From an uncultured Candidatus Saccharibacteria bacterium (lineage in GTDB: Bacteria; Patescibacteriota; Minisyncoccia; Phycocordibacterales; Phycocordibacteraceae), in NCBI GenBank assembly GCA_964652615.1, contig CAZZAT010000002.1, positions 7,296 through 71,295 of the forward strand: a stretch of DNA of 64,000 nucleotides, given 5' to 3'. Positions 730-49,704 of this stretch are shown piece after piece. The notes below the pieces were generated by a model, which was not told the DNA's origin, searched no databases, and worked only from the letters and a program-made list of their open reading frames with translations. Position 1 is the stretch's first letter. Each line of letters opens with the position of its first letter. The position numbers and the translations under genes are program-made.

Positions 730-1464
730 TTAGTCTATCTCAAGCTCGATAGAGCGGTCGTTGTTTCGCTCGTTAGACTCATCAACGCGGTCGTCGTAGT
801 CGACTTCAATGTCGATATCAATATCGCGATTCTCGCGAGGGTCTTCGATGCGAAGCGTGAAGTTCTGGTAGCCGTTTGGCATAAGGTAGCCGCCGTTGCC
901 GCGCACCGTATCCTCGCCCGTTACCTCTACCTGAACGCGCCAGCCGCTTGCGGCGTTGGTGCCAATGTTCTTTACGGTAAAGCGGACAGCGCCATCGCGG
1001 TTTGAAGGAACGGTATCATCTTCAACAAACGTCGAACCGCGGAAATAGCCTGCCTCAAGATCTGTTATGACAAGATCAGCGCGTCCGTAGAGTTCAGGTG
1101 TCTGCGGGTAATACACCGGAGTCTGGGGGTAATAGACTGGTGGGTTTGGAGAAACAGCAACGGGAGGCGTCACAACTTGTGGGCCACCTGTCTGTGGGGT
1201 GGAAGGAGTTTCTGGTGCAGGAGCCTCTTCCTCCTCTTCGACAGGAGCAGCAGGGGCCTCTTCCTCTTCAGGATTTTCCTCGTTGTCAGAAGAGAGAATA
1301 ACTGCAGAAGAAAGACGTGAAAGGGTTTCTGGAACGTAGCGTGCTGCGTAGATAGCAAGAAAGATGCCCGCTATGATGAGCGCGCCAAAACCAACGATAG
1401 CGAGGCCGTTTACGGCCGCTTTCTTCGTTTCTTCAGAGTTTGCCATACCAAAGGAGCGTACCAC
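730..1464 (-). CDS. Membrane-anchored CARDB-domain protein
   Basis: An N-terminal TM helix, a Pro/Glu-rich linker (PVYYPQTP repeats) and a C-terminal CARDB-like beta-sandwich (DLVITDLE...VKNIGTNAASG...ESNERNND). Confidence 0.7.
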   Translation of the reverse strand: MVRSFGMANSEETKKAAVNGLAIVGFGALIIAGIFLAIYAARYVPETLSRLSSAVILSSDNEENPEEEEAPAAPVEEEEEAPAPETPSTPQTGGPQVVTPPVAVSPNPPVYYPQTPVYYPQTPELYGRADLVITDLEAGYFRGSTFVEDDTVPSNRDGAVRFTVKNIGTNAASGWRVQVEVTGEDTVRGNGGYLMPNGYQNFTLRIEDPRENRDIDIDIEVDYDDRVDESNERNNDRSIELEID

Positions 1465-1534
1465 TGCAAGAGATACTTGTCAATAGCTACGAGAAAGCAG
1501 GGAGAGATGCTCTTGTGCTAGAGTAAAAAGCATC

Positions 1535-2185
1535 ATGGCTGAACAGAAGGGGTCAACTGCCTTTGAAAATGTCCTTCGCCGCAAGTGGAGCTTCCTTGCG
1601 CTCTTCACGCTTGTCTATTTCATCTCACTTTCTACACTTGCAGGCTTTGGCCTTGCGCCGTGGTCTTCAGAGCCTCCTTCATTTGTACCAAGCGAAGGGG
1701 AGACAGTAGTGGAGGGAAGTAATCCCATTGCGGTAGCACAGGGAGAATTGCCGCTTCGCATCGAGATACCAAAACTCGGCATTCGAACGACAGTTTCAAA
1801 CCCAACCTCTGCAGCTATCTCTGTCCTTGATGCTGAACTCACCAAAGGCGCTGTGCGCTATCCAGGTTCCGGTACTCCAGGGGAAGCAGGTAACGTCCTT
1901 ATTTTCGGCCACTCAAGCCAGCTGCCTGTGGTGCAGAATCAGGCGTACAAAGCATTCAACGACATCCAGAAACTGAACGCCGGAGATGTGATTTTTGTAC
2001 TTGGCGAAGAGCACGCCTACGTGTATGCGGTTGAGAGCGTGTCAGAAGCAAACACCGCATCAGACGCAGTGCCGCTTGCGGTCGATGGCGCAAAGCTTAC
2101 TCTTGCTACCTGCAATAACTTCGGCTCAAAAGAGGATAGATTTATCGTCGTTGCGAACTTGGTGAAGGTGGATGTGTTGCCGTAA
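1535..2185 (+). CDS. Sortase family transpeptidase
   Basis: An N-terminal TM anchor, a His-containing LIFGHS motif, the catalytic TLATC motif (sortase TLxTC) and the downstream conserved Arg. Divergent from the CARDB gene. Confidence 0.8.
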   Translation: MAEQKGSTAFENVLRRKWSFLALFTLVYFISLSTLAGFGLAPWSSEPPSFVPSEGETVVEGSNPIAVAQGELPLRIEIPKLGIRTTVSNPTSAAISVLDAELTKGAVRYPGSGTPGEAGNVLIFGHSSQLPVVQNQAYKAFNDIQKLNAGDVIFVLGEEHAYVYAVESVSEANTASDAVPLAVDGAKLTLATCNNFGSKEDRFIVVANLVKVDVLP

Positions 2186-2210
2186 AGATTTTTAGTAGAG
2201 GAGAGAATAC

Positions 2211-2237
2211 GCTTCTTTACAAGAAGCCGTTTTTCTT
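2211..2237 (+). terminator. Weak hairpin plus T-tract after the sortase gene
   Basis: gcttctt-tac-aagaagc followed by cgtttttctt. Confidence 0.35.
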
Positions 2238-2290
2238 ATACTGTCCAGTCGGAATCCTTCAACACTTCAACCTCGGAAAGGAGGACTCTA

Positions 2291-2995
2291 ATGAAGGATA
2301 GTGAACAAAACCAGAAGCTTTCTGGGTGGGTGAAGTTGAGTATCGGCATTGTTCTGGCACTCCTTTTTGGTGTTTCGTTCCAACTCGATCCTTTTGGAAC
2401 TGGAAACGGTCCAGAGGCACGAGTTGGAGGCATTCTTCCACAAATTCGTATTTGGATGGAAGAGCGCGAAACAGCAGAAAAAGAAAAACAGGAACGTGTT
2501 GAGCGAGACGTTGCTGAGGTTGTTGAGCCGGAGGCAAAAGCTACGCCACGCCCAAATCGAGCACGACGTGTTTCCACACAAAGAGAGCCGACACTACATG
2601 TCTTAAATGGGACATATGGCGACTTTGAAGCGACAGGCACGTTTGCCGATATAGGCACACACCGGCTCGCTCCTGGTTCACACGTATCAACTTCCATATA
2701 TCTGCCTTCGAGAAATGGAGTTGGGTCTGTTTCGATAGATTTTGGCCCGCGCAGAGTGGACGCAACTGGTATTTTCCATGCGAAACTGCCACGATACGTC
2801 CGAAATCTGCGAACGGGAGACTTCATCGATCTTGCTTCACGTCGCTATAGGCTTGTCATTTCAACTGATGACGAGAGATATCGAGGCTGTGGTGCTCGTT
2901 ACAACATTCTCGAGGAAGGCGACTCTACAGGCTGGTTTTATGGAGCAGACAGAATATTTTGTGCAAGAAATGAAGGGGTCCCCGACCTCTACTGA
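2291..2995 (+). CDS. Hypothetical membrane-anchored extracytoplasmic protein
   Basis: A strong SD (AAAGGAGG) and an N-terminal TM helix; no recognisable domain. Confidence 0.6.
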   Translation: MKDSEQNQKLSGWVKLSIGIVLALLFGVSFQLDPFGTGNGPEARVGGILPQIRIWMEERETAEKEKQERVERDVAEVVEPEAKATPRPNRARRVSTQREPTLHVLNGTYGDFEATGTFADIGTHRLAPGSHVSTSIYLPSRNGVGSVSIDFGPRRVDATGIFHAKLPRYVRNLRTGDFIDLASRRYRLVISTDDERYRGCGARYNILEEGDSTGWFYGADRIFCARNEGVPDLY

Positions 2996-2997
2996 AA

Positions 2998-3030
2998 CCT
3001 CCGGCGCATACGCGCCGGAGGATTTTCTAT
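2998..3030 (+). terminator. Intrinsic terminator
   Basis: cctccggcgc-atac-gcgccggagg followed by attttctat. Confidence 0.7.
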
Positions 3031-3045
3031 AGGATCCCGTAAGTA

Positions 3046-3074
3046 TTGACAATCGGTCATTATTGGTGTAGTAT
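3046..3074 (+). promoter_or_regulatory. Putative promoter for the gene at 3111
   Basis: TTGACA, a 17-nt spacer, then TAGTAT. Confidence 0.4.
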
Positions 3075-3110
3075 ATTTTCACAGTCGTACCCAACATAAG
3101 GAGGGAAGAA

Positions 3111-3635
3111 ATGGCTGAAGGTTCTAATTCATCGTACGGTTCCAAGATCGTCGCCATCATTACGACAGGGTTGATTGTCGTCGGCCTTATCGCTGCACTC
3201 GGATGGTATGTTCTGCCATTCATGTACAACGAAAGGATTCCGTTTGAGTCCGAAGCGGAGACTTCTTCCGTGCAGACTGCAACAGAAGCTTCAACATCTC
3301 CTGTCGTTGTTGTGCAGGTACCTCAACCACCGCAAGCTACAGTGTCCGCTCGGCAAGAAGTCAGAACAGCCTTCGCAGGCAACTCTGGCAATGCTGCTGT
3401 AGAAATGCAGCTTGGTGAACACTTGGGGAGCGGCGAAGTGCGTGCGTCCGATGTCGGAATCGACGTAGCAGGAACCATCGTCGACACGGGAACCGGTTAC
3501 CGCCACTACGGTCAGCCGGTTCGCCGTCCCAATGGCACGGTCTGTCGATCTCTGCCGTCAGGAGAAAGACAATGCGTTCCGGGGGTTTGCACTGCAGACC
3601 CTCAGTCAGGCCGACAAGTGTGCCGACCGACGTGA
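3111..3635 (+). CDS. Hypothetical membrane-anchored protein with a Cys-rich C-terminus
   Basis: SD AAGGAGGG, an N-terminal TM helix, and a C-terminal region with 6 Cys (CRSLPSGERQCVPGVCTADPQSGRQVCRPT). Confidence 0.6.
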   Translation: MAEGSNSSYGSKIVAIITTGLIVVGLIAALGWYVLPFMYNERIPFESEAETSSVQTATEASTSPVVVVQVPQPPQATVSARQEVRTAFAGNSGNAAVEMQLGEHLGSGEVRASDVGIDVAGTIVDTGTGYRHYGQPVRRPNGTVCRSLPSGERQCVPGVCTADPQSGRQVCRPT

Positions 3636-3650
3636 AGACACCTTAACTAA

Positions 3651-3686
3651 GGGCCAGAACACACGACGTGTTCTGGCCCTTTCTGT
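3651..3686 (+). terminator. Intrinsic terminator (12-bp stem)
   Basis: gggccagaacac-acgac-gtgttctggccc followed by tttctgt. Confidence 0.65.
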
Positions 3687-3691
3687 ACCTC

Positions 3692-3720
3692 TTGACATAT
3701 GTTTGCTAATAGTTTACAAT
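3692..3720 (+). promoter_or_regulatory. Near-consensus sigma70-type promoter
   Basis: TTGACA (3692-3697), a 17-nt spacer, then TACAAT (3715-3720). It lies about 105 nt upstream of the 3826 start, with a hairpin-rich leader in between. Confidence 0.5.
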
Positions 3721-3825
3721 ACTCTTTGTGTGGGAAGCTGTTTGCTTAGGAACGAAACGAGGCGTTTCCCAAGCAGTCAGCTCTCCGCTGGGAGAGTGTG
3801 TACAACAGAATGAAAGGAGGGGGCG

Positions 3826-4704
3826 ATGCTGAAGAAGCTCACCCTTATTCTGCTTGCGTTCGCGGGGATTACTTCTGCGACGCTTGCACCGGCAAACGCC
3901 GAGATTACGTGGACGACATGGGGGGAAGCCCCGTACGCTTCGTCGTACGACGAAGCGGTCAGGCGCCTCCCTGACGCGCTGCGTACTCTGAACATTCCGG
4001 AGTCTGTAAGGACTCTCTTTCTGGAAGAGGTGCGCCGCAATCCGCAAGGAGCGCGTGTGTATCTGACGCCAGGAAACCGCTTCACAGCAATGATGTCGGG
4101 TGGGCGTGCTCCGCACGCAATGCAAGACGTTGTTGTTGGACGCAATCCGGTTCGCCGGGGGGCTGTCCAAGCGGCTGAGGCACGCGAGTGGCGTGTGGAA
4201 TATCAGGGCCAGATCTATATCTTGGTTTTGCCGGAAATCTGTTTTAACTGGGCGTGGCGTCAAGAACCACGTCCGCAGGAGATTCCTGTTGAAGAACCAT
4301 GTGCGGTCGTCACGCTGACGATTGAGCAGGGACGAGGACAACTGCTTTTCGGCGGTCTCTCGCCCACAGCGTCGCCCCCGTCACGTTGTTTTGCTGTGAA
4401 GCAAGGCAGTGGTGAATGGGAAGCGCTTCCAGGCGGATGTATCGAATGCGTCCGCTGGCAACCGGTCTTAGCGAGACTTCCCGAATCTGCGGCTGCGGAC
4501 AGAAATGTCAGCATGCAAAGCAGAATCGTGATTCGCGCAACAACGGTACAAGTCAGAGTCCCGGTTTGGTTTGAATCCCACCACTTGGGTTTCTACTTGC
4601 TCGCGGAAGATGGCTTGTGTAGTTGGCTCGTTGTACAACCAACGGACTGGCGCTCGCATGCGTTCAGCTTCAGAGATTGGAGATGGCGGCCGCGAGGCCA
4701 CTAA
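3826..4704 (+). CDS. Secreted hypothetical protein
   Basis: SD AAAGGAGGGGG and a cleavable-looking signal peptide (MLKKLTLILLAFAGITSATLAPANA); no known domain recognised. Confidence 0.6.
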   Translation: MLKKLTLILLAFAGITSATLAPANAEITWTTWGEAPYASSYDEAVRRLPDALRTLNIPESVRTLFLEEVRRNPQGARVYLTPGNRFTAMMSGGRAPHAMQDVVVGRNPVRRGAVQAAEAREWRVEYQGQIYILVLPEICFNWAWRQEPRPQEIPVEEPCAVVTLTIEQGRGQLLFGGLSPTASPPSRCFAVKQGSGEWEALPGGCIECVRWQPVLARLPESAAADRNVSMQSRIVIRATTVQVRVPVWFESHHLGFYLLAEDGLCSWLVVQPTDWRSHAFSFRDWRWRPRGH

Positions 4705-4801
4705 ATCCCGTGTGGGACGACAGCGCATGCTGCTGTCGTCCCCCACGCTCTTTTTTGTACGGGCGTCCATTAATAGTAGTCGCACCGTTTATTAAAAAAT
4801 T

Positions 4802-6133
4802 ATGAACACCATTACTACCACTATGAAAAGTCCAATACTCGGCTATTCCGGTCTCTTTGGCATGCTTGTAGCGCTTGCGCTTGGCGTAGCGTTTGCTTTC
4901 GCGTCCGGTCTTGCAACCCCGCAACCTGCAAACGCGTACATCGCCGACTACGGTGATTGTTACGATTGTGGCGGATGGGAACAGGGCTACGACACGTACA
5001 TCCCGTACGACGACTATGGTTACGGATGGGAACAGGGCTACGACACGTACATCCCGTACGATGATTATGGCTACTATTGGGAGCAGGGATACGACACCTA
5101 CATTCCGTACGATGATTACGGGTACGACTACTACGACTACGGGTATTACGATGATTCGTACTACTACGACTACACCGACTACTACGCGTACGACTACTAT
5201 GACTACGGGTACTACGATTCGTACGACTACGACTGGTACTACGACTACGACTATGATTACGGCTGCTACAGCGGCTGCAATCCGCCCACCTTCGACTATT
5301 GTTCGAACATCCCAGGCAACCAGCCTGCAGGCTACAACTGCTACCCAGACAACGGCTGCCATAACCACTGCAACCCTCCGCACGACGAGTGTTCCAACAT
5401 TCCTGGCAACCAGCCTGATGGCTATGACTGCTACCCTGACCACGACACGGAACCCGTTTGTACGCTCTCTGCTGACGATAAGAACCTAGAGGAAGGGGAC
5501 TCAACAAAGCTTCGCTGGACGAGCGATAATGCAACGTCTGCAAGCCTTACCTCTTTCGGTTCTGTATCAACGGACGGCACTAAAACCGTATCGCCAACGT
5601 CTGATAAGACGTACACCCTTACGGTGCGCGACAATGATGGCGACACTGATACGTGTTCTGTAACCATTCGTGTCGAGGAAGAGGATGAAGATGAGGAGGA
5701 ACCATGGTGCCGCCTCACCGCATCTGACTCTCGTGTTGATGAAGGCGATCGCATTACCCTTGAATGGGATACGCGAAACGCAGACTACGCTTCTATCAAT
5801 CAGGGCATTGGCCGTGTTGATGAAGATGGCGGCGAAGAGCGCTTCACTATGGATGATGACGACATCACCTTCCGCATGACGGTTCGCAATAGCGACGGCG
5901 ACGAGGATACGTGTTCAACCACGGTTCGCGTTGACGAAGAGAACGATTTCTCTTCAGTCTCGTTCGAAGGTGAGCCGGTAAACAACCCTCCTGTGGTGTA
6001 CCTCTCGTCGCTGCCATACACGGGTATCGAAGACCTTTCACCTTCTATGATTGGCTTCCTCGCAACCCTTCTTGCCCTTATGGGTATGGGCGGCTACTAC
6101 TTCTTCGTGAAGCGTAAGCAGGTTATTGCCTAA
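4802..6133 (+). CDS. LPxTG-type cell-wall-anchored surface protein with a Tyr/Asp-rich repeat region
   Basis: A signal peptide; three tandem 17-aa repeats (GWEQGYDTYIPYDDYGY) followed by a long Y/D low-complexity tract; two Cys repeats (CNPPxxDxCSNIPGNQPxGYxCYPD); two approximately 80-aa Ig-like repeats; and a C-terminal LPYTG sorting signal with a hydrophobic segment and a KRK tail. Confidence 0.75.
   Translation: MNTITTTMKSPILGYSGLFGMLVALALGVAFAFASGLATPQPANAYIADYGDCYDCGGWEQGYDTYIPYDDYGYGWEQGYDTYIPYDDYGYYWEQGYDTYIPYDDYGYDYYDYGYYDDSYYYDYTDYYAYDYYDYGYYDSYDYDWYYDYDYDYGCYSGCNPPTFDYCSNIPGNQPAGYNCYPDNGCHNHCNPPHDECSNIPGNQPDGYDCYPDHDTEPVCTLSADDKNLEEGDSTKLRWTSDNATSASLTSFGSVSTDGTKTVSPTSDKTYTLTVRDNDGDTDTCSVTIRVEEEDEDEEEPWCRLTASDSRVDEGDRITLEWDTRNADYASINQGIGRVDEDGGEERFTMDDDDITFRMTVRNSDGDEDTCSTTVRVDEENDFSSVSFEGEPVNNPPVVYLSSLPYTGIEDLSPSMIGFLATLLALMGMGGYYFFVKRKQVIA
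4973..5125 (+). repeat. Three tandem 51-nt repeats inside the surface-protein gene
   Basis: Units at 4973-5023, 5024-5074 and 5075-5125 are near-identical (ggatgggaacagggctacgacacgtacatcccgtacga...). Confidence 0.85.
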
Positions 6134-6147
6134 CAAGCACACTAAAG

Positions 6148-6182
6148 AAAACCCCGAAGCAATACGCTTCGGGGTTTTCTTT
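6148..6182 (+). terminator. Intrinsic terminator after the surface-protein gene
   Basis: aaaaccccgaagc-aatac-gcttcggggtttt followed by cttttgg. Confidence 0.7.
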
Positions 6183-6197
6183 TGGTACACTCTACAC

Positions 6198-6488
6198 ATG
6201 GATACCCAAACGCTCCTCTACTACGGCGCCCTCGCTCTCTGGAGTGCCTTTATTGCCTATACGATTCTCTTCTCCTTCCGAAAGCAACAGAAGGAGACCG
6301 TACAAGCGCCCCCTCCTGCACTAGCGCCTGTTTCTTATGACGTACCGCGCAGCGTACCTTCTGTATATGAACCCACCCCCATCCCCGAGCATGCACGAGC
6401 ACTTGCTACTGATGGCTTTCGAGCCTTTCAGACAGGAGATGAACTCACCGTCGAAGATATTGTAAAGGGGCTTTCAAGAAACGAATAA
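6198..6488 (+). CDS. Small membrane protein (hypothetical)
   Basis: Begins MDTQTLLYYGALALWSAFIAYTILF downstream of the terminator; the listed ORF start at 6126 would run through the terminator. One TM helix and a Pro-rich tail. Confidence 0.45.
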   Translation: MDTQTLLYYGALALWSAFIAYTILFSFRKQQKETVQAPPPALAPVSYDVPRSVPSVYEPTPIPEHARALATDGFRAFQTGDELTVEDIVKGLSRNE

Positions 6489-6513
6489 ATCTCCCTTAGG
6501 GGAGATTTATTTC
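6487..6513. terminator. Bidirectional hairpin terminator
   Basis: aaatctccc-ttag-gggagattt, with A-tract and T-tract flanks. Confidence 0.6.
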
Positions 6514-6538
6514 CGCACAATTCTACACTTTTCCTAGT

Positions 6539-6754
6539 TTAGGAGAGCACATCAAGAGTGGCGTGGTTGTCTCGGCGAGATTTCAAGGCAATCTTGTGTT
6601 CACCCTCGGCATCGGCGTATGTGTATACCTTACCTTCCTCACCGTACATTTCAACGCGTCTCTTGAAAGTCTCGAGGTCGGGGATGTTGGAGTCTGCTCC
6701 CTCGGCAGTTACAAGGATTCCGGGGACATAATCTGGCTTTCCTTCAAATGGCAT
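6539..6754 (-). CDS. Hypothetical small acidic protein (71 aa)
   Basis: An ORF downstream of thrS on the same strand; weak SD; no domain recognised. Confidence 0.3.
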   Translation of the reverse strand: MPFEGKPDYVPGILVTAEGADSNIPDLETFKRRVEMYGEEGKVYTYADAEGEHKIALKSRRDNHATLDVLS

Positions 6755-6802
6755 GTGATATTAGGTTATTCCAATAACTGCACCTAATAAATCGTACTAT
6801 TT

Positions 6803-8062
6803 TTACTTGTGAGTGGTCTTACGGCTGTGTACATGTTCTAAGAACACATCAACGGTCATAGCGTCAAGTTTTCCTTCGTCGCGTCCCTCAACCGAAACCG
6901 TCTTCGCTTCAACTTCTGCATCTCCAACCACAAGGAGGTAGGGAACCTTCTCTTCTTTGCCGCTTCTAATCTTTTTTCCAAGCGATTCGTTTGAAGCATC
7001 ACACTCTACGCGTATATCCTTAGCGCGAAGCGTGTCTGCAACTTCTTTTGCATATGCAAGGTGTTTTTCAGAAACGGGAAGCACCTTTGCTTGTACTGGA
7101 GAGAGCCAGAGCGGAAATGCGCCTTTGTATTTCTCGATAAGGAAGGCCATAGTCCGCTCAATCGAGCCGATAGAGGAGCGGTGCACGACGAAAGTACGAT
7201 GCTCCTTGCCGTCCTCGCCTATGTACGAGAGATTGAACTTCACCGGAGAAGAGAGGTCGTACTGCACGGTAAACGCAGTATCTTCCTTGCCGTTGACGTT
7301 CTTCATCTGAATATCAATCTTGGGGCCATAGAAAGCGGCCTCGTCTTTTTCTTCAACGAACGCAACGCCGCGCTTGTGCATTGCTTCGCGAAGCAGTGTT
7401 TCGGCCTTCTCCCAGCCAGCATCATCCTTGAAGTACTTCTCGGTATTCGCGCGATCTCCAAGCGACAAACGATACGAATAGTCCTCGCCCATCTTGAGCC
7501 CGAGGACGCCGTTTGCGTATTCAATAAGATCGAGCGCCTTGTGTATCTCTTCAATAGCCTGCTCCTCGGAAGCGCAAATAATATGTGCGTCTGAAAGACA
7601 GAAACTGCGGACTCTTTGAAGGCCCATTAATTCTCCCGACTGCTCGTAGCGGTACAGCTTTGCAAGTTCTGCATAGCGGATAGGGAGTTCGCGGTAGCTG
7701 TGCGGCTCGCGAAGATAGAGTTCGAAGTGGTGCGGGCACGTCATCGGACGGAGCATGAACTGCTCGTCTTCGTCGGTGATAGGCGCGTACATCGAATCTT
7801 TGTAGTGCGGGTAGTGGCCTGACTTCTCATAGAGTCCAAGCTTCGCCATGTCCGGCGTAATCACATGCTGATATCCGCGGCGTATCTCCTCATCGACGAT
7901 AAAGCGCTCAAGCTCGCGGCGTATTGTTGCACCCTTTGGCGTAAAAAGCGGCAAGCCTTTGCCGACAACATCCGAGAAGGCAAAGAGGTCGAGCTCCTTG
8001 CCAAGCCTCTTATGGTCATTCTCCTTTCCTTGGTTAGGTTCCATACCAGTCGAGAATAACAC
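6803..8062 (-). CDS. thrS: Threonyl-tRNA synthetase, minimal form (catalytic core plus anticodon-binding domain; no N-terminal TGS or editing domains)
   Basis: Class II aaRS motifs (HKRLGKELDLF, PMTCPHH, FVVHRSSIGSIER) and a C-terminal anticodon-binding domain; only 419 aa. Confidence 0.9.
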   Translation of the reverse strand: MLFSTGMEPNQGKENDHKRLGKELDLFAFSDVVGKGLPLFTPKGATIRRELERFIVDEEIRRGYQHVITPDMAKLGLYEKSGHYPHYKDSMYAPITDEDEQFMLRPMTCPHHFELYLREPHSYRELPIRYAELAKLYRYEQSGELMGLQRVRSFCLSDAHIICASEEQAIEEIHKALDLIEYANGVLGLKMGEDYSYRLSLGDRANTEKYFKDDAGWEKAETLLREAMHKRGVAFVEEKDEAAFYGPKIDIQMKNVNGKEDTAFTVQYDLSSPVKFNLSYIGEDGKEHRTFVVHRSSIGSIERTMAFLIEKYKGAFPLWLSPVQAKVLPVSEKHLAYAKEVADTLRAKDIRVECDASNESLGKKIRSGKEEKVPYLLVVGDAEVEAKTVSVEGRDEGKLDAMTVDVFLEHVHSRKTTHK

Positions 8063-8072
8063 ACAACGCGCT

Positions 8073-11000
8073 TTAGAGCGGCTTTACGTTCTCAAGGGCA
8101 AGCGATATTTCTCCATTTCTTGAGGAAACTTTTGCCTTTATCAGCATGCAATTGCCGGCCGATAGAAGCTTGGCATGTTCCTTGAAAAGGCGCGGGAAGG
8201 CCACTGCTTCAATAGATCCTGTCTTATCCTCAAGCTTTAGAAACGCCATCTTCTCGCCGCCCTTGGTGAGTATCGCGCGCGCCTCAGTAATAAGGACAGG
8301 GAGTATGAGTGTCATGCCGACCACCGGTTCTTCAAGGAGCGCTGCAATCGTCGTACCTGCTTTCGATGACTTCTCGGCATGCGCATCAAGCGGATGCCCG
8401 GAGACATAGATACCAAGCAGTTCTTTTTCCCATGCAAGCTTGTCGATAAGGGAGGTAACGGAGTCTGCAGAAGGCAGGGTAAGCGTGGGCGGGGCAACGG
8501 CGCCAAACAAAGAGTCTTGCGCTTGGGGTGCTGTTGCGTCCCGATGGAAAGTGAGCAGGGTCTCGATGTGCGCAATGAGATGCGAGCGTTCGCCAAGCGC
8601 ATCAAGCGCACCGCACTTAATCAAGGACTCAAGCGACTTCTTATTCAGATTCTTCGATCCGATACGAACGAGAAACTCCGAAAGGGAAGCAAACGGACCC
8701 CTCTCACGCTCTTGCATGATACTTTCTGCAATACCTTCGCCAAAGTTCTTAATTGAAGAGAGGCCGAAGCGTATCTTTGTTCCCGCATCAACGATGGTAA
8801 AGGTAGAGCGACTTTCGTTGACGTCTGGAGGAAGCACTGGTATCGAAAGGCGCTCGCATTCAGCGGCAAGCACGGCAATCTTCTCAACATCGCCCGCGTC
8901 TGCGGTAAGAAGAGCGGCCATGTATTCAACAGGGTAGTTGGCCTTCATATAGGAAGTCTGATACGCCACTTTGCCGTAGCTTGCTGCGTGTGAGTTGTGC
9001 ACAATGATGTCGTTTGCAATGAAGTTTTGAAGAACAGACACAGAGAGGTCGTAGGTCATTTCTTCTCCATCAGGTTCAATACTGCGGATTTCATCCCAAA
9101 ACACGTCGCTTCTTGCATGCTCGGCAAGCGTCTTTGAAGAGAGGGCTACAGCAGTTTTCTCAAGCACTGCACGCGTATATCCGCGCTTTCGTGTGTCTTC
9201 ATAGAAAAGGCGTTCTGAAAGATTTGTACATCGTGCAAGTTCTGCTATAGGCACTCCTTGCCGTGCAGCTTCTGCACGTATGTGTTCGAGTATCTGCGCC
9301 GGAACAGTATCTGCTGTTCCTCGTCCTCGTGCATTGGTCCGTACGGAACAAAGGCGCACCAAAAGTGCGAGCGAATCGCGTTTTGTTCCGATAAGGTGTG
9401 CGCCAGCAGTTTTTTCAAACCGTGTAAGATTTTCTATACCCGTAACGGTAACGGTATACCCGATACGCAAGCTCCCGCGATACCAAAATTGTTTACGATG
9501 TATCGTTGAAAGTATTGAAAGGCGAAGAAGTACATGCTGTACGTCGTGCGCAAGGTGCTTAGAGCTGGTCGCATAGAACACCTGCTGATTTTTGAGGGAA
9601 ATAGCTCCATCTCCCTGCCACATCTTCCCGAGCATGAGTGCAAGAGAATCGTTGTTCCAGGTAAGCACTGAATCAGGAATTTCTTTCTCTGTAGCGCGCT
9701 TCCCTCGAATACCAAGTCTCTCTGCCCATACAAGCATGCCATTTTGTTCTTTCTGGGTACGTCTGCCTACATATGCGCTTATAGCAGCTTTTGAACGATT
9801 TAAGGTCACTTGTGTGCCCGGGAAGCAGAGCGCTGCACGCGAGAAATCTGCAATCTCATTTTCCTGTGTCGAGTACATGTATAAACCATGCGGATGGCAC
9901 AGATTTCCCTCCGAGAGCAAATATCCAAGCGCTGCCGCTTCGTGTGCTGGGGCTGCACAGGATTCCGTTGGTTCGGGGAGATGGCGTGGAACAGCGATAC
10001 GTGCGCCAGCAGACAGCTCGCCAAGCGGGCGCCACCCTGCAAATGTGAGCAGAGGATGATTGTCTGTTGCACGAATAGTACGGCCGGAACGGGTGGTAAG
10101 GCGGAAGACACGCTTTACGCCATTTTCTCTAACCCAAGAGCCTTGTCCCTCTACAAGCTTCTGGCCTTTCGACAAAGCGAGTACGGGCACTTTACCTTTC
10201 GTTTCAATAAGGGTTTTCAGTGATGTGCGAGAACCTGTTTTTGGATTGTAAATACACGTATCACCCGTTAAGCACTTATTAAACCCATACGCTGCAAAGG
10301 GTTCGATAAGTTTCCAAAGCTCTTCCGCACGCTTTTGTGGGAGCTTTCCATGCTCTACAAAGCCACTAATAAGCTTCTCGCGTTCCGCTTCCATCACTTC
10401 CGGAATCTTCTTACCCATCGCTTTGCGGAGCATGTCTGCCTGAAGCCACGAATAGCCGCCAAGCGTAATCGAGGTCAAAAGCACGTCGTCTTGGTACACC
10501 AGAAGGCCGTAGGAAGCGTCGAGGTAGTCTTTCATGCGCTCATCCATATACGTAATGAGCTTCGGGTTTCGTTTGCGCTCGATGTACTGCGGGATGGTTT
10601 CGATAGGGCCGGGGCGATAGAGCGCCACCATAGCGTTGATGTCATGGATGGTTGTAGGCCGGAGTTCCTTCAGATACCGAGTCATGCCCGAGCCGTTTAA
10701 CTGGAAGGTGCCTTCTGTTTCTCCGCGCGCAAGCATGGCAAAAGTCTTCTCGTCATCAAGCGGCACGTTTTCAATATCAATGACGATGCCGCGCGTTTCT
10801 CGCACGCGCTCCACCGAGTCTGCGAGAATGGCGAGGTTCTTGATGCCAAGGAAGTCGAACTTCAAAAGGCCCGCATCCTCAATGGAATGCATATCGTACT
10901 GGGTGATAAGCTTGCCTGTTTTTTGGTCGGTCTGAAGCGAGGTCCACTCGGTCAGCGGCGTAGGGGAAATAACGACGCCAGCGGCATGTACGCCCGTGTG

Positions 11001-12491
11001 GCGGGCAGAACCTTCAATACGCCGTGCAAGATCAATAATTTCCTTCACATCATCATCTTCTTGGTAGAGCTGCTTCAACTCTTCTTCCATCGTAAGCGCG
11101 CGGTCAATAGTCATAGGGAATCCTTGAGAGCCAAGGGGAATGAGCTTTGCAATGCGATCTCCCGTGCCGTATGCGTGTCCCAAAGCGCGCGCAACGTCGC
11201 GCACTGCCGCTCGCGCAAGCATGGTTCCAAAGGTGCCTATCTGCGCAACGTGGTCTTCACCATACTTTCTTTTTGCGTACGCAATCATCTCGTCGCGCCT
11301 ATCGTCGGCGAAGTCCATGTCGATGTCGGGCGCTGACGGACGCTCGGGGTTCAAGAAGCGCTCAAACGGCAGCTTGTATTTCATCGGGTCTACGTTGGTA
11401 ATGCGGGCAAGATAGGTAACTAGCGATCCTGCAACCGAGCCGCGAATGGTGGTTAGGATGTGGTTTTCGTGAGCGAAGTTGAGAAGGTCGGATACAACAA
11501 GGAAGTAAGGCGCATAACCCTTTTGCTTGATGACCGAGAGCTCGTATTCAATGCGTTTTTCAACTTCCGGTGTCTTCTCCATGCCGCGTGCAGACAATCC
11601 TGCATAGGCTTTTGCCCGAAGTTCTTCGTCGTGGTCGCTAAATCCTTCAGAGACCGCAAGCGCAGGGAACACCCATTTGCCAAGTTCAAATTCAAGAGTG
11701 CAGCGCTCTGCTATTTCTCCTGAACGGTCGACTGCCTCTCCCATATCTTTGAACCATGCGCGCATATTCTTTTCGGATACAAACGAGAAGTCTTCCTTTT
11801 CGTTGTATCCTTCGCTTCCTTGCTGGATGCGCCGCAATACCGCACATGCTTCGCGGTCATCAGGGGAGAGGTAGTACACATCATGCTGCGCAACGAGCGG
11901 CACGCCGCTTTCTTGCGAGAGCTTCTTAATCTGTTCCATCTTTTGCGCGTGCCCTTCTACCGATGGGTGGTGCGTAATTTCAAGGAAGACATTTTCTTTT
12001 CCGAAGATGCTTTGCCAATGAGCAAGAGCGGCCGCAGCTCCTTTTGCGTCGCCTCGTGAAAGCAATTGTGACGTGTCTCCTGCAAAAGAAGGAATGAGCG
12101 CAATGAGTCCTTTCGCATGTTTTTGCAGAAGCTCGCGGTCCATGCGCGGGCGCTCAAAAAAGCCATCGGTATACGAAGCAGTCACAAGCGCAAGCAAGTT
12201 CTTATACCCTTCCTGATTTTCAACAAGAAGCACGAGGCGCGAGCGCTTTTCATCTCGGTCGTGCACTAATCGTGATGCGGGAGCGATATAGGCATCAACA
12301 CCAAGCACTGCTTTAATGCCCGCCTTCTTCGCTTCTTTATAAAACTCAATTGCGCCATGCAGGTTGCCTTCATCGGTTAGGGCAAGCGCTTCCATGCCTT
12401 CCTTTTTTGCAGCCTCGACAAGCTCAGGCACTTTCGGAAGGGCTTTTAAGAAAGAGTAGTGGCTGTGGGTGTGTAGGTGAACGAATGCCAT
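8073..12491 (-). CDS. dnaE: DNA polymerase III alpha subunit (DnaE) interrupted by an in-frame intein
   Basis: An N-terminal PHP domain (MAFVHLHTHSHYSF), a polymerase core and a C-terminal OB fold. The conserved GFNK|SHAASY motif is split by a 427-aa insertion. Confidence 0.9.
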   Translation of the reverse strand: MAFVHLHTHSHYSFLKALPKVPELVEAAKKEGMEALALTDEGNLHGAIEFYKEAKKAGIKAVLGVDAYIAPASRLVHDRDEKRSRLVLLVENQEGYKNLLALVTASYTDGFFERPRMDRELLQKHAKGLIALIPSFAGDTSQLLSRGDAKGAAAALAHWQSIFGKENVFLEITHHPSVEGHAQKMEQIKKLSQESGVPLVAQHDVYYLSPDDREACAVLRRIQQGSEGYNEKEDFSFVSEKNMRAWFKDMGEAVDRSGEIAERCTLEFELGKWVFPALAVSEGFSDHDEELRAKAYAGLSARGMEKTPEVEKRIEYELSVIKQKGYAPYFLVVSDLLNFAHENHILTTIRGSVAGSLVTYLARITNVDPMKYKLPFERFLNPERPSAPDIDMDFADDRRDEMIAYAKRKYGEDHVAQIGTFGTMLARAAVRDVARALGHAYGTGDRIAKLIPLGSQGFPMTIDRALTMEEELKQLYQEDDDVKEIIDLARRIEGSARHTGVHAAGVVISPTPLTEWTSLQTDQKTGKLITQYDMHSIEDAGLLKFDFLGIKNLAILADSVERVRETRGIVIDIENVPLDDEKTFAMLARGETEGTFQLNGSGMTRYLKELRPTTIHDINAMVALYRPGPIETIPQYIERKRNPKLITYMDERMKDYLDASYGLLVYQDDVLLTSITLGGYSWLQADMLRKAMGKKIPEVMEAEREKLISGFVEHGKLPQKRAEELWKLIEPFAAYGFNKCLTGDTCIYNPKTGSRTSLKTLIETKGKVPVLALSKGQKLVEGQGSWVRENGVKRVFRLTTRSGRTIRATDNHPLLTFAGWRPLGELSAGARIAVPRHLPEPTESCAAPAHEAAALGYLLSEGNLCHPHGLYMYSTQENEIADFSRAALCFPGTQVTLNRSKAAISAYVGRRTQKEQNGMLVWAERLGIRGKRATEKEIPDSVLTWNNDSLALMLGKMWQGDGAISLKNQQVFYATSSKHLAHDVQHVLLRLSILSTIHRKQFWYRGSLRIGYTVTVTGIENLTRFEKTAGAHLIGTKRDSLALLVRLCSVRTNARGRGTADTVPAQILEHIRAEAARQGVPIAELARCTNLSERLFYEDTRKRGYTRAVLEKTAVALSSKTLAEHARSDVFWDEIRSIEPDGEEMTYDLSVSVLQNFIANDIIVHNSHAASYGKVAYQTSYMKANYPVEYMAALLTADAGDVEKIAVLAAECERLSIPVLPPDVNESRSTFTIVDAGTKIRFGLSSIKNFGEGIAESIMQERERGPFASLSEFLVRIGSKNLNKKSLESLIKCGALDALGERSHLIAHIETLLTFHRDATAPQAQDSLFGAVAPPTLTLPSADSVTSLIDKLAWEKELLGIYVSGHPLDAHAEKSSKAGTTIAALLEEPVVGMTLILPVLITEARAILTKGGEKMAFLKLEDKTGSIEAVAFPRLFKEHAKLLSAGNCMLIKAKVSSRNGEISLALENVKPL
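8994..10274 (-). mobile_element. Intein (427 aa) with LAGLIDADG-like homing endonuclease domain in dnaE
   Basis: Spans aa 740-1166 of DnaE. It starts with Cys1 (CLTGDTCIY, block A), has a TxxH block B (TDNH), LAGLIDADG-like motifs (LGYLLSEGNL and LALMLGKMWQGDGAI), and ends in VHN followed by a Ser +1 extein residue. Codons verified: 10272-10274 revcomp tgc (Cys) and 8994-8996 revcomp aac (Asn). Confidence 0.8.
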
Positions 12492-13869: not shown

Positions 13870-13889
13870 CTACCGTGTACTTTAGATAC

Positions 13890-14786
13890 ATGGCAAACAG
13901 GCACCTTGCACGCTCGGTTGTTCTTCAGACCCTCTTTGAGTGGGATAGTGTTTCTGTACCGGAAGCCGAGGTGCCTGCCATTTTAGAGCGAAACGCCGCA
14001 GAATTTGGAGGCTCGGATACGGATAAGCCGTTCATGCAGGAGCTTCTCTCCGGAGTGCTTGCAAAGCATACCGATCTTGATGCCATCATCGTTAAGGCAG
14101 CGCCTGACTGGCCCCTTGAACGCATCGCTCCCATAGACCGCAATATTCTGCGCATCGGCCTCTACGAACTTCTCTTTTCTGATAGAGCGCAAGTGCCTCC
14201 TAAGGTTGCTATTAACGAAGCGATTGAGCTTGCAAAAGTGTTTGGCGGAGACTCCTCCGGAAGATTTATTAACGGCGTTTTGGGTGCGGTATATAAAGAG
14301 CTTGGAGAACCAGGCAAAGACGAGCAAGGAAAGAAAGAGAAGCAATCGCGCAAAGAACTCCCGCTTGAAAATCTTGCAGGCGCTATTGTCTACGCATACC
14401 ACGACGGCCAATACTATCTCGCGCTCGTTCATGACGTCTTTGGACGCTGGACGCTTTCAAAGGGCCATATTGGCGAAGGAGTAGCGCCTAAAGACGGCGT
14501 TGCAAAAGTGGTTAAAGATGAGATAGGGCTAGAAGGGAAGGTACTAGAGCAAATTGGCGAGAATGAGTACGTTGCTTCGCATCCCGAGAAAGGAAAAGTG
14601 CGAAAGCATGTGTACTTCTTCCTCGTTGAAGCTCCGTATGAGACGCTCGAACTTAAAAAGAGCGGCGGCCTCGATGATGCGAAGTGGTTTCGGCTCCCCG
14701 ACATCCTCGCCCTTAACTTCTATGACGACATGCTGCCGATAGTTACTGCAGCGGTGCAGAAGCTTTTGGATAAGAGTAGTGCTTAA
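13890..14786 (+). CDS. nusB: Transcription antitermination factor NusB fused to a C-terminal Nudix-like domain
   Basis: The N-terminal approximately 150 aa match NusB (LARSVVLQTLFEWD, INEAIELAKVFGGDSSGRFINGVLG). The C-terminal approximately 140 aa have a Nudix-like fold signature (GHIGEGVAPKDGVAKVVKDEIGLEG, with a degenerate Nudix box). Confidence 0.7.
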   Translation: MANRHLARSVVLQTLFEWDSVSVPEAEVPAILERNAAEFGGSDTDKPFMQELLSGVLAKHTDLDAIIVKAAPDWPLERIAPIDRNILRIGLYELLFSDRAQVPPKVAINEAIELAKVFGGDSSGRFINGVLGAVYKELGEPGKDEQGKKEKQSRKELPLENLAGAIVYAYHDGQYYLALVHDVFGRWTLSKGHIGEGVAPKDGVAKVVKDEIGLEGKVLEQIGENEYVASHPEKGKVRKHVYFFLVEAPYETLELKKSGGLDDAKWFRLPDILALNFYDDMLPIVTAAVQKLLDKSSA

Positions 14787-37757: not shown

Positions 37758-38837
37758 ATGCAAACAGCACCCGTACGAAACCTACACAAAACCATGCGCG
37801 TCACAGATGAAATCCTTGAACGGTACCGCACGCAAAGCGCGGCGTTCATGTCGCCCGACCAAGCCGGCGCCCGCCGGTTCTACCGCTCGCAGCACCGCAC
37901 CGAAATAGCGGTGTTGAAGTGCATGGACGGCAGGCTCAACTTGGCGCTCATGACGAATACGCCGCCCGGCATTCTCTCGCCGTTTCGCACGATGGGAGGA
38001 AAGTTCAACATGGGGTGGCCGTGGTTTGGCGACCTCATCGATGAATGGGTGAAGCATGCGTGGGAGAAGCAGCGCAGCGCGGTCATTCTGGTGACCTACC
38101 ACTTTTCGCGCTCCCATAATTCGCATCTCGGATGCAAAGGATGGGGGTACGACCAAGCGGCTGCACAGGATGCGGCGCATGCGCTCGTGAACGACATTGG
38201 GCGCATCTATGGCGTCGGGCACGATGGCGTTCGCGCTATCGTAGTCGGTATTGAAACGGATGAAGACGCACTCGTTTTTCACGGAAATGGAACGCTCGAC
38301 TTGGCACAAGAGGCGGACACCGCTGAATTTGAGCTTCTCGAGAAGTTTCGCGTTCTTTTCCCTGGCATGGGACTTCAAGTTCTTTCCGATGTGTTTGAAC
38401 TCGTGAAAGGCAATATTGCGCATATCGCCGAGATTCGCGCCAAAAAGCGCGAACCTATCGACATGGACCATCGCGAAAACATCATCGGGGTGGGCCGCGG
38501 TTTCGATTCGCTCCATATGCCCAACCGAGCGCTCATCATCGGCCCCTTCGATCATGGGTGGCCAAACGAAGTGGCAGTCGCAGGAAAGATTGTTAAAAGC
38601 AATCTTGAAGCGGGCCGCATCAACGTCGAGGACGGCTTCCTTTTGCTGTGCTCGTCTGCGTTTCGCAAGGACCGCGGCACGGGCCTTGAACGGCACCGCT
38701 CTGAATTCCGAGCGAAGGAAATTGCGAAGTACGCTCAAAAGGCGCTTACCGAGGCAGTTCCCGATCTTACATTCGATGTCGTTATCGGCACTGTCGATAT
38801 GGATACTCGCGAACTCTACGTTCTCGAGCGGTCATAG
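37758..38837 (+). CDS. Hypothetical protein (359 aa) with a CxDxR ... HxxC motif pair
   Basis: VLKCMDGR at aa 52-59 and SHLGCKG at aa 122-128 resemble the zinc-site spacing of beta-carbonic anhydrase, but overall similarity is not established. Confidence 0.5.
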   Translation: MQTAPVRNLHKTMRVTDEILERYRTQSAAFMSPDQAGARRFYRSQHRTEIAVLKCMDGRLNLALMTNTPPGILSPFRTMGGKFNMGWPWFGDLIDEWVKHAWEKQRSAVILVTYHFSRSHNSHLGCKGWGYDQAAAQDAAHALVNDIGRIYGVGHDGVRAIVVGIETDEDALVFHGNGTLDLAQEADTAEFELLEKFRVLFPGMGLQVLSDVFELVKGNIAHIAEIRAKKREPIDMDHRENIIGVGRGFDSLHMPNRALIIGPFDHGWPNEVAVAGKIVKSNLEAGRINVEDGFLLLCSSAFRKDRGTGLERHRSEFRAKEIAKYAQKALTEAVPDLTFDVVIGTVDMDTRELYVLERS

Positions 38838-38902: not shown

Positions 38903-39727
38903 ATGCCGCGACGCAAGAAGAAATATCCCATAACGCACTGGAGCTACTCCTCCTTGATGGCGTATTTGCGCAACCCTCTGGCGTGGTATAAGCACTACGT
39001 TCTTAAGATATACGACACGCCGCGCGGTCCCTCTGCCATTGTGGGCGTTGCAGGCCATCTTGCGCTCGAGCATTTCTATACCGGCTTTTCAAAAGAGCAG
39101 GCAATTGAGCAGGGGCTCGTCTATCTTCGCAGCGTTCCTGATTTTGAAATAAACTTCGGTGTTGCTTCAACGCGCCTCGCTAAAAAAGCAAAGCGCCTTT
39201 CCATGGAGCGCGACTATCTTCAAGCCATCGGCTTCTATCTCGCTCGTCCGCCGCGTCATCGCGTGCTTGCTGCAGAAGCGAAGGGACTTGCTAAAGTACA
39301 AGGCCTTCCGCTTCAGGTCAAAGCGGTCGCAGATCTTGTCGTCGAGTCGAAAGGAAACAAGGGATGCGTTGATGTTGTGGATCATAAGTTTGTCGAGACG
39401 TTTAGTAAGGCAAAGGGCGCAAAACCACTCTTCATGCTCCAAGCAGTCTTTAACTACTATGTCGTCTCCTCACTGTACGGGAAGCCGGTGAAGCGCTTTA
39501 TGGTCTATGAGTGCAAGAAGTCCAAAAACAAAGACGGGAAGCCCCAGCTTCGAAAGTACGTCCTCCACTATGACGACATGGCAGATGCCTTTGACGTCTT
39601 TCACCGGCTCGTGAAGGAAGCGAGCGCGGAAATAGCAACGCGCCGCACGTATCTTCCTAACCCTTCAGACATGTTTGAAGGAGAAGATTCGTTTGAACTC
39701 TACCGTCTTCGACTTACCGAAGACTAA
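38903..39727 (+). CDS. Putative PD-(D/E)xK nuclease of the Cas4/RecB-like family, without the C-terminal Cys cluster
   Basis: An N-terminal SYSSLxxYxxNPxxWY motif (cf. RecB-family SxSxLxxYxxCP); candidate motif II ADLVVE and motif III VVDHK; no C-terminal CxxC...C. Confidence 0.45.
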   Translation: MPRRKKKYPITHWSYSSLMAYLRNPLAWYKHYVLKIYDTPRGPSAIVGVAGHLALEHFYTGFSKEQAIEQGLVYLRSVPDFEINFGVASTRLAKKAKRLSMERDYLQAIGFYLARPPRHRVLAAEAKGLAKVQGLPLQVKAVADLVVESKGNKGCVDVVDHKFVETFSKAKGAKPLFMLQAVFNYYVVSSLYGKPVKRFMVYECKKSKNKDGKPQLRKYVLHYDDMADAFDVFHRLVKEASAEIATRRTYLPNPSDMFEGEDSFELYRLRLTED

Positions 39728-47779: not shown

Positions 47780-47781
47780 AG

Positions 47782-49701: not shown

Positions 49702-49704
49702 AGA

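Follow-up and report, generated by a model that had tools for sequence, protein, structure and literature searches.

A stretch of 64,000 nucleotides (nt), hereafter the window, of contig CAZZAT010000002.1 from an uncultured Candidatus Saccharibacteria bacterium contains, at positions 4802-6133 of the forward strand, a gene for a secreted surface protein of 443 amino acids (aa). Directly after its signal peptide this protein carries a tract that is extremely rich in tyrosine and aspartate and that is in part made of three tandem units of 51 nt. The composition of the tract is far beyond chance, i.e. the feature is real and non-random, and we propose that it may be an adhesive or recognition tip of the protein. 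The parts of the gene, and the overlapping open reading frames (ORFs) at the same place, are the following.

4802..6133 (+): gene for the 443-aa secreted surface protein that carries the tract (ORF list and homologues)
4802..4936 (+): signal peptide, aa 1-45, with putative cleavage after PANA and before YIADYG (helix and A-x-A site)
4937..4972 (+): mature N-terminus with a GDCxxCGGW motif (CYDC, aa 53-56; from the sequence)
4973..5125 (+): three in-frame 51-nt tandem units, consensus peptide [G/Y]WEQGYDTYIPYDDYGY
5126..5275 (+): irregular low-complexity part of the tract, rich in Tyr, Asp and Gly, aa 109-158 (its 50 residues include 25 Y, 14 D, 4 G and 3 S)
5276..5446 (+): Cys-rich linker with CxxxC pairs and two copies of CSNIPGNQPxGYxCYPD (nt 5300 and 5390; motif scan)
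5447..5677 (+): immunoglobulin (Ig)-like domain 1, aa 216-292, bracketed by Cys218 and Cys287 (AlphaFold, predicted local distance difference test (pLDDT) >90, strands within 219-292)
5678..5701 (+): acidic inter-domain linker EEDEDEEE (from the sequence)
5702..5935 (+): Ig-like domain 2, aa 301-378, with the family-invariant motif INQGIGRVDEDGG (AlphaFold, pLDDT >90)
6011..6130 (+): predicted sorting signal, consisting of LPYTG (6011-6025), a hydrophobic segment and a KRKQVIA tail (motif scan)
4670..5543 (both strands): three spurious overlapping ORFs (4670-5443 -, 4821-5543 - and 4893-5489 +)

DNA periodicity was determined with Tandem Repeats Finder and the units were then read in the frame of the ORF at 4802-6133 (+). 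The program delineates an array of period 51 at 4972-5126, with 3.0 copies, 87% matches and zero indels. A preliminary description of this DNA had spoken of three near-identical units at 4973-5125 that encode the same peptide three times; the array is indeed there, but only the first two units are near-identical (94% pairwise DNA identity, versus 78% for units 1 and 3 and 82% for units 2 and 3) and share a translation (GWEQGYDTYIPYDDYGY, at 4973-5023 and at 5024-5074), whereas the third (5075-5125) reads YWEQGYDTYIPYDDYGY and starts with Y, not G. The three of 51 bases at which units 1 and 2 differ are all synonymous, and the longest exact run common to these two is 38 nt. Unit 3 differs from units 1 and 2 at 11 and 9 bases, respectively; three of these make up the single Gly-to-Tyr codon change and the remainder are synonymous. 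Within each unit Tyr occupies positions 6, 9, 12 and 15, i.e. it has a strict spacing of three. The roughly 50 residues that follow are, as had been described, nearly all Y, D or G. The corresponding DNA (5126-5275) is not made of the 51-nt unit and has only degenerate TAC/GAC periodicities of 15, 18 and 33 nt (61-68% matches), and orthologues have equivalent Y-x-Y stretches to which its C-terminal stretch, SYDYDWYYDYDYDYGC, can be aligned.

Considered as a whole, the mature N-terminal part (aa 46-158, 113 residues) contains 44 Tyr (38%), 26 Asp, 14 Gly and 4 Trp, is entirely devoid of Lys, Arg, His, Phe, Leu, Val and Met, and has a net charge of -29. Relative to a Tyr background of 3.0%, derived from the 9,437 residues of confident genes in the window, this enrichment has a binomial P of 6e-37, and no second comparable Tyr-rich stretch occurs in any ORF frame of the 64 kb. 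The tyrosines have an acidic context: D or E is found within two residues of 40 of the 44 (at position -1 of 14 and at position +1 of 19). An alternating Tyr/acid amphipathic beta-strand was considered and dropped for the window protein, where the lag-2 autocorrelation, which compares the alternation of aromatic and acidic residues with that in shuffled sequences, is not significant (z = 0.4); in some relatives such periodicity is significant (z up to 6).

The long ORFs in other frames that had been noted as spurious (4670-5443 - and 4893-5489 +) are present, together with a third (4821-5543 -). They exist because runs of TAC and GAC codons are free of stops, and their translations are monotonous strings that are V-rich, T-rich or R/S-rich. 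The coding frame of the tract itself is established by the homologues, by the signal peptide and the LPYTG motif in the same frame, and by the fact that nearly all differences between the repeats are synonymous in it.

The most informative comparison is with an ortholog from another species (P0002; P and L numbers denote proteins and loci, respectively), which is 60% identical overall and has the same three-unit layout (GWEEGYDTYIPYDDYDY x3) with synonymous differences of its own. All six units of the two proteins share the core GYDTYIPYDDY without change; within the codons of this core the third positions vary in 8 of 11 cases, and none of the first or second positions varies, which implies that the peptide itself is constrained by purifying selection, beyond mere composition. 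The preliminary description had considered the repeats unstable on account of their high identity, a view that does not agree with the short exact run shared by units 1 and 2, the retention of three copies in a 60%-identical ortholog and the synonymous nature of the differences. The latter two observations indicate that the array is under purifying selection and is not merely a product of unstable slippage.

Copy number does change, as had been anticipated, and it does so between species: the closest species representative (L004, whose sortase is 72% identical) has two units where the window and P0002 have three. The tract had furthermore been called potentially phase-variable, but in the usual on/off sense of the term this does not apply, as a unit equals 17 codons and its gain or loss stays in frame. 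At a contingency locus a change in copy number shifts the reading frame or the promoter spacing; here the 51-nt unit lies inside the ORF and relatives differ in-frame. Since every observed change is in frame, the variation is one of length and sequence and not an on/off switch. The unit had also been suggested as a query for other genomes, and a degenerate DNA pattern for GYDTYIPYDDY, run against the JGI metagenomes, matched the contig of P0002 and no other; the P0002 contigs in ENA and JGI are identical over 3,818 bases, so that they are not independent. In the collections searched, no strain-level data were found for the window's own lineage, and the contig index contains neither the exact protein nor its NCBI version.

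Where a tract is present in other family members it likewise follows the signal peptide directly (median start at residue 49), with approximately 25-44% Tyr and K+R near 0, and it is made of different units: GWEPEYEVYNTYDYYDY x3 in P0005, GGWETPYYADTSSINY x4 in P0014, an 18-mer x4 in P0070, YPEYDSTF x12 in P0077 and still others, all at the equivalent position. The Tyr spacing is kept in the units of P0002 and L004 and, by inspection, in the diverged unit of P0005. Tyr-rich tracts with few acidic residues (D+E 1-10%) are found in P0027, P0063 and P0080. In a more distant branch, two proteins (P0039 and P0072) agree at every one of 574 aligned residues (100% identity) and differ only by one 20-residue Y/D unit and one 84-residue Ig-like domain. 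Their DNA repeat is 60 nt long at 100% identity and one of the two contigs has about 3x coverage, so that real strain variation and assembly collapse cannot be told apart as the cause of the one-unit difference.

Three near-identical pairs differ by exactly one Ig-like domain of 84-86 residues (P0039/P0072, P0029/P0066 and P0064/P0081), and an Ig-like DNA repeat of 252 nt at 94% identity lies at 968-1475 of L062. Such one-domain differences between near-identical proteins imply that stalk length varies too, or else that assemblers collapse the repeats.

The remainder of the protein has the build of a wall-anchored surface protein. It is acidic throughout (isoelectric point (pI) 4.05, 87 D+E versus 20 K+R) and has 14 Cys. 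The signal segment is modelled by AlphaFold as a hydrophobic helix (aa 16-38), and at the putative cleavage site, which was read by eye, the P and A positions of PANA are near-invariant in the family alignment. The GDCxxC motif at the mature N-terminus is also present in P0002, P0003, P0005, P0016, P0048 and P0062. The Ig-like domains carry DxDGD/DEDGG loops, and in the second the columns I332, G337, V339, E341, G344 and C371 are invariant. The LPYTG motif, of which P405, Y406, T407 and G408 are invariant in an alignment of 51 sequences, is preceded by a stretch that is not repetitive and followed by IEDLSPSMIGFLATLLALMGMGGYYFFV and then KRKQVIA, with a C-terminal helix (414-442) in the AlphaFold model; no other credible sorting signal was found in the 64 kb. 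Although the matches to Big_9 (20.1 bits versus a cut-off of 23.6) and PKD (19.1 versus 27) in Pfam are both sub-threshold, these features together lead us to predict with high confidence that the protein is an Ig-domain surface protein with sortase-type (LPYTG) anchoring, an identity that is well supported.

An identical protein in the NCBI database (P0001, 100%, on a contig of 108 kb) is called from Met8 (nt 4823). The upstream ATG at 4802 yields MNTITTT, a beginning that P0002 and P0003 have conserved, so that the deposited version probably lacks the first 7 codons. The motif CSNIPGNQPxGYxCYPD of the Cys-rich linker is common to P0003, P0007, P0016, P0036 and P0042 and, in the form C-x-N-[ILV]-x-G-x-Q-x(3-4)-Y-x-C, the two copies (5300-5350 and 5390-5440, +) recur in many relatives. 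It has no match in Pfam and a low pLDDT; being Cys-bracketed and repeated twice, it probably represents a small module closed by a disulfide.

A full-length AlphaFold2 model was built with the 51-sequence alignment, and the tract was modelled separately with a focused alignment. In the full-length model both Ig-like domains are beta-sandwiches with pLDDT >90 (aa 219-292 and 302-378) and the terminal segments are helical, whereas aa 44-205 have a pLDDT of approximately 34 and are without secondary structure. The tract-only model likewise has no structure (pLDDT 44, predicted TM-score (pTM) 0.15), and on the basis of these models the tract is probably unstructured, i.e. disordered. A Foldseek search of the PDB returned Ig-fold matches at probability 1.0, including titin, the BIg domains of SiiE and the grappling hook protein GhpA. 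At the sequence level neither the tract nor the three units alone match any Pfam family at E <= 10, and the tract has a single chance match among the PDB sequences (E = 1.8). A tract-only query (115 aa) of a large protein database gave no matches at E <= 0.001, not even the identical protein, because the composition correction of HMMER strips such matches.

In a protein database 117 homologues were found, and all those that are named or could be traced derive from metagenome-assembled genomes (MAGs) of Patescibacteria/Paceibacteria. An exhaustive HMMER search of 1.84 billion representatives yielded 5,041 proteins at E <= 0.001, among them 395 with E <= 1e-30; Ig-like domain 2 lies in the region that they match. 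Among the best 150 of these 5,041, the best match lies nearly always within aa 170-442 and mostly within approximately 215-440, i.e. it covers the Ig-like domains and the anchor; the exceptions are P0027, which matches from aa 46, and P0023, which matches from aa 96. Some of the matched proteins carry many matching stretches (up to 33).

The homologues occur in a conserved genomic setting, which in the window comprises the following neighbours of the tract gene.

730..1464 (-): divergent membrane protein with a CARDB domain (Pfam CARDB, E = 1.4e-9)
1535..2185 (+): sortase of 216 aa, with an N-terminal membrane segment and a TLATC catalytic motif (Pfam Sortase, E = 1.3e-20)
2291-2995, 3111-3635 and 3826-4704: unannotatable secreted/membrane proteins (orf234, orf174 and orf292) without a family
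3826..4704 (+): the last of these, orf292, an upstream secreted protein of 292 aa with a pI of 8.8 (no Pfam or NCBIfam match)
4710..4757 (+): strong hairpin and U-run between orf292 and the tract gene (RNA fold, -30.3 kcal/mol)
6126..6488 (+): downstream membrane protein of 120 aa (orf120), overlapping the tract gene by 8 nt at its stop codon (no family match)
6803..8062 (-): convergent threonyl-tRNA synthetase (ThrRS; Pfam)

The sortase, which scores 73.9 bits against a Pfam cut-off of 26.6, is encoded 2.6 kb upstream of the tract gene. A scan of one genome per species gave 58 loci, for which all informative labels are Patescibacteria (including Kaiser-, Campbell-, Taylor-, Nomura- and Liptonbacteria, Minisyncoccia and Paceibacterota); many are third-party annotation (TPA) MAGs labelled 'uncultured Candidatus Saccharibacteria'. 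A sortase lies upstream of the PYTG match in 51 of the 58, mostly at a distance of about 1.3-3 kb, a CARDB protein is adjacent in 40, a homologue of orf120 lies downstream in 31 and ThrRS is convergent in 48. The presence of the sortase in 51 of 58 loci and the invariance of P-Y-T-G together point to a conserved sortase-plus-substrate locus of the class. Sortases have been reported in more than half of the genomes of the candidate phyla radiation (CPR) (PMC6744442), while a preprint on a CPR pilus mentions sortase as background only. In Paceibacteria that are parasitic on methanogens, highly expressed surface proteins with Ig-like/PKD folds have been reported as candidate adhesion factors, without mention of such a tract (PMC10936435). 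Within the paper library searched, 'tyrosine-rich' did not occur in any paper together with Patescibacteria, Parcubacteria or CPR terms.

The order conserved across these loci (730-8062 in the window; L004-L061) is CARDB (-), sortase (+), variable small secreted proteins and the PYTG protein (+), continued on the 3' side by the small membrane protein (+) and ThrRS (-). The hairpin at 4710-4757 has a z of -5.2, with 0 of 200 shuffles folding as well, and was missed by a consensus terminator scan as its U-run begins a few bases past the stem; it is a likely intrinsic terminator, which suggests that the tract gene is transcribed on its own. A promoter consensus scan upstream of the tract gene gave nothing convincing. 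Among the closer relatives, homologues of orf292 are found at the equivalent position in 12 loci and on the contig of P0002. The protein was considered as a basic electrostatic partner of the tract and rejected, being only mildly basic (net charge +4 at the pI given above) and having co-location as the sole support.

Several homologues show variations on this theme. In four cases (P0086, P0088, P0093 and P0094) the C-terminal part of the CARDB protein is a copy of the Ig-like domain of the PYTG protein (INQGxGRVDEDGG, 74-78% identity), which suggests domain exchange between neighbouring genes; the CARDB protein of the window is without such a copy. An extension of approximately 100 residues past PYTG and the membrane segment is present in P0007, P0011, P0014, P0016, P0036, P0042, P0047, P0048 and P0062, with a conserved tail (IPxFAFA...EGH...AAxxGxxxEExL), whereas sortase substrates normally end a few basic residues past the membrane segment. 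The extension may correspond to a membrane-retained fragment with a role of its own, or these proteins may not be cleaved. The ThrRS of the window (419 aa) has the class II core and the anticodon-binding domain, a TGS/editing domain was not detected in it, and in 48 related loci ThrRS has this short form too, aligning over its full length.

Elsewhere the window carries housekeeping genes (DnaE, NusB, RNase III, SMC, RpoB/C, DnaG, RpoD, HisRS and ribonucleotide reductase), and it also holds a redoxin and a DsbA-like oxidoreductase (39724-40407), the latter of which fits the paired Cys of the surface protein. No sulfotransferase, tyrosinase/laccase/peroxidase/oxidase or glycosyltransferase domains were found in the scanned ORFs of at least 150 aa in the window or in the conserved locus. 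The gene for DNA polymerase III alpha (8073-12491 -, 1,472 aa) holds an intein (Intein_splicing, aa 755-1165) with a LAGLIDADG homing-endonuclease domain (LAGLIDADG_3, aa 949-1027). At 13875-14786 (+) a single ORF joins NusB (aa 12-141) and a NUDIX hydrolase (aa 183-286), and at 37758-38837 (+) an ORF of 359 aa has a weak match to the CsoSCA catalytic domain (E = 5e-7), which is unexpected in such a genome. An ORF of 836 aa fuses a phosphomannomutase/HAD-like part with an FAD-linked oxidase and is adjoined by genes for two GH130 mannoside phosphorylases and for a cupin of the mannose-6-phosphate isomerase type, forming a compact cluster for mannoside use (window 45389-47899 - and 47782-50853 -).

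Sortase substrates are joined to peptidoglycan through their C-terminal Thr, and the N-terminus is thus the distal end, where the ligand-binding part normally sits. We therefore consider it about an even chance (a probability of roughly 0.5) that the tract is a wall-distal, disordered, acidic-aromatic and multivalent adhesive or recognition tip. The protein would be exported via Sec and would form its disulfides, after which the sortase would cut LPYTG between T and G and attach the protein to the peptidoglycan. The Ig-like stalk, which is acidic and may be stiffened by Ca2+, would present a flexible, polyanionic and Tyr-rich tip that could act as a multivalent adhesive or ligand-binding module, in which the many Tyr would provide weak and promiscuous contacts by stacking and hydrogen bonding, while the Asp residues between them would maintain the chain in a soluble, extended state and may link it to partners via divalent cations. 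Duplication and divergence of the units could then tune length and specificity between lineages. Chemically there is a precedent, as Tyr contributes more than any other residue to the contacts of antibody paratopes and binders made with a four-amino-acid code are Tyr-dominated (PMC3498902). A stronger version, in which the tract would be a natural 'minimalist paratope', i.e. a host-recognition tip, rapidly diversified by repeats, by which these ultrasmall, host-dependent bacteria would find their partner cells and keep hold of them, with the unit setting host specificity and the sortase locus serving attachment class-wide, appears to us unlikely; if true, it would provide a marker of host range for an uncultivated lineage that can be read from sequence.

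Several points weigh against an adhesive tip. We infer the adhesive role from position and composition, and a net charge of -29 would repel anionic cell surfaces unless cations form a bridge. Low confidence of AlphaFold is no proof of disorder, as low-complexity regions align poorly, which lowers confidence. The anchor scores slightly below the curated thresholds of both models (15.5 bits versus a cut-off of 20 for Gram_pos_anchor of Pfam, 15.2 versus 15.9 for TIGR01167). Moreover, a Tyr-rich head, defined as at least 30% Tyr in a 50-residue window, is present in only 10 of 57 syntenic orthologues (18%) and in 4 of 133 representatives from the exhaustive search (3%); a count of 77 tract-bearing proteins among 118 matches is inflated, as that search picks candidates by shared 5-residue words. 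Being rare in the family, such a head is not required for what the family does at its core; it is a clade-limited addition, present in a minority, to a stalk and anchor that stay constant.

These points leave room for explanations in which the tract does something else. It is conceivable, if rather doubtful, that the tract mainly sequesters or responds to Ca2+, Mg2+, Fe3+ or mineral surfaces, with carboxylates and phenolates as ligands and a chain that collapses or assembles upon binding, a possibility that overlaps in part with an adhesive tip. Such a role would fit the strong negative charge, the lack of basic residues over 113 aa, the proximity of D or E to 40 of 44 Tyr, the low pI of the whole protein, the DxDGD/DEDGG loops of the Ig-like domains, the occurrence of the Ca2+-binding adhesin SiiE among the Foldseek matches and the aromatic/acidic alternation in some relatives (z up to 6). 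Yet the window protein is without that alternation, no metal-binding family of Pfam is matched, the relatives P0027, P0063 and P0080 have Tyr-rich tracts of which D+E make up just 1-10%, and charge alone does not explain why T, I/V and P are conserved in GYDTYIPYDDY. That same conservation bears on the view of the tract as a passive module for length or antigenic variation, i.e. a tolerated spacer or a shield against phage, proteases or host recognition that has no specific ligand. An invariant 11-residue core in six diverged DNA copies from two species speaks for a sequence-specific constraint, the bias is towards one aromatic and not towards the Ser, Thr, Pro and Gly typical of spacers, and the tract is at the distal tip instead of between a ligand domain and the wall. 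We hence hold a passive module to be unlikely, even though unit sequence and number vary widely among orthologues, most family members are without a tract, the tract has no predicted structure and the number of Ig-like domains also varies between near-identical proteins.

Acidic-flanked Tyr is the classical context of tyrosine sulfation, a context that is present here around 40 of 44 Tyr with zero K, R or H, and 38% Tyr would permit dense cross-linking. That the functional form is modified, i.e. sulfated, cross-linked via dityrosine (as in spore coats and extensins) or O-glycosylated at Tyr, is nevertheless improbable, given that no sulfotransferase, tyrosinase/laccase/peroxidase or glycosyltransferase domains were found in the scanned window ORFs of at least 150 aa and that the reduced metabolism of Patescibacteria would make the supply of 3'-phosphoadenosine-5'-phosphosulfate (PAPS) doubtful. 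The strong constraint on the core, the GW with which each unit starts and the Tyr spacing of three that is kept in P0002, L004 and P0005 could also reflect folding of the 17-residue units into beta-hairpin or polyproline II (PPII)-type repeats that, like choline- and cell-wall-binding repeats, bind a wall polymer or sugar in aromatic pockets, much as the Tyr-rich Y region of Sbi from S. aureus binds lipoteichoic acid (PMC3378709). Two AlphaFold runs without secondary structure, the lack of Pfam (E <= 10) and PDB sequence matches and the small number of units for a solenoid make a folded repeat very unlikely. Finally, the source is evidently a MAG, and the perfect 60-nt repeat of a relative differs by one copy between two low-coverage contigs, so an assembly artefact or a non-coding repeat had to be weighed as well. 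It is barely credible, because the units differ mutually at 3-11 sites and are thus not collapsed or expanded identical copies, because three units laid out in the same way, but with a separate set of synonymous differences, are present in an independent species (P0002), and because the frame is open through the tract and runs on into conserved domains.

Little is known of the means by which Patescibacteria select their hosts and attach to them, research so far having mostly concerned type IV pili. Many Paceibacteria have a conserved sortase-plus-substrate locus in which a constant Ig-like stalk and anchor would carry a highly variable distal head, and in one clade this head is an extreme Tyr/Asp repeat tract under selection at the peptide level. 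If the head mediates attachment, it would be a concrete candidate for host recognition and an unusual, natural, tyrosine-dominated disordered adhesive; if the tract is only a tolerated low-complexity spacer, it would be an ordinary feature of a surface protein.

Among known systems, no described family accommodates the tract. The entire protein resembles the LPXTG cell-wall proteins of Gram-positive bacteria (MSCRAMM-type) in having a signal peptide, Ig-like domains, an LPxTG-type pentapeptide, a hydrophobic segment and a basic tail, as well as a nearby sortase and a variable distal N-terminus. It differs in its host (a Patescibacteria MAG) and in the family-specific [LIV]PYTG, and where MSCRAMM-type adhesins have a folded A-domain it has a Tyr/Asp low-complexity tract of approximately 110 residues. 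The SD repeats of the staphylococcal Sdr/Clf proteins are likewise acidic, of low complexity, sortase-anchored and encoded by short tandem DNA repeats that vary between strains. They form, however, a glycosylated stalk beside the wall anchor, whereas the tract is distal (aa 46-158), has Tyr in place of Ser and uses a conserved unit of 17 residues instead of a dipeptide, so that both position and chemistry are wrong for an SD-repeat stalk. The CotC and CotU proteins of the Bacillus subtilis spore coat, which are small, rich in Tyr, Lys and Asp, assembled intracellularly and cross-linked, share a very high Tyr and Asp content with the tract, but the latter has zero Lys and belongs to a secreted, anchored protein.

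Short Tyr-rich tandem units that start with G-W are also known from the choline- and cell-wall-binding repeats (CW_binding_1) and from GW modules, in which aromatic pockets bind wall polymers. The tract has no match to the profile and no predicted beta-hairpins, for which reason we do not assign it to either type of repeat, and it has three units only and far more Asp than CW_binding_1. The Y region of S. aureus Sbi is a further example of a Tyr-rich segment in a Gram-positive surface protein, but it is C-terminal, binds lipoteichoic acid non-covalently and holds Sbi, which is without LPXTG, on the envelope of its own cell (PMC3378709), whereas the tract is N-terminal, acidic and built from repeats; no sequence similarity between the two was detected. 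The composition of the tract (Tyr, Asp, Gly and Ser) corresponds to the residues responsible for most antigen contacts in Tyr-dominated paratopes and is comparable to that of synthetic binders made from Tyr, Ser, Asp and Ala; Tyr by itself can provide most of the binding energy (PMC3498902). In function, the Sbi Y region and such paratopes are the closest analogies, neither of them being homologous. Those are short loops on a folded scaffold and the tract is a long, apparently unstructured chain, so the relation would be one of chemical analogy and not of homology.

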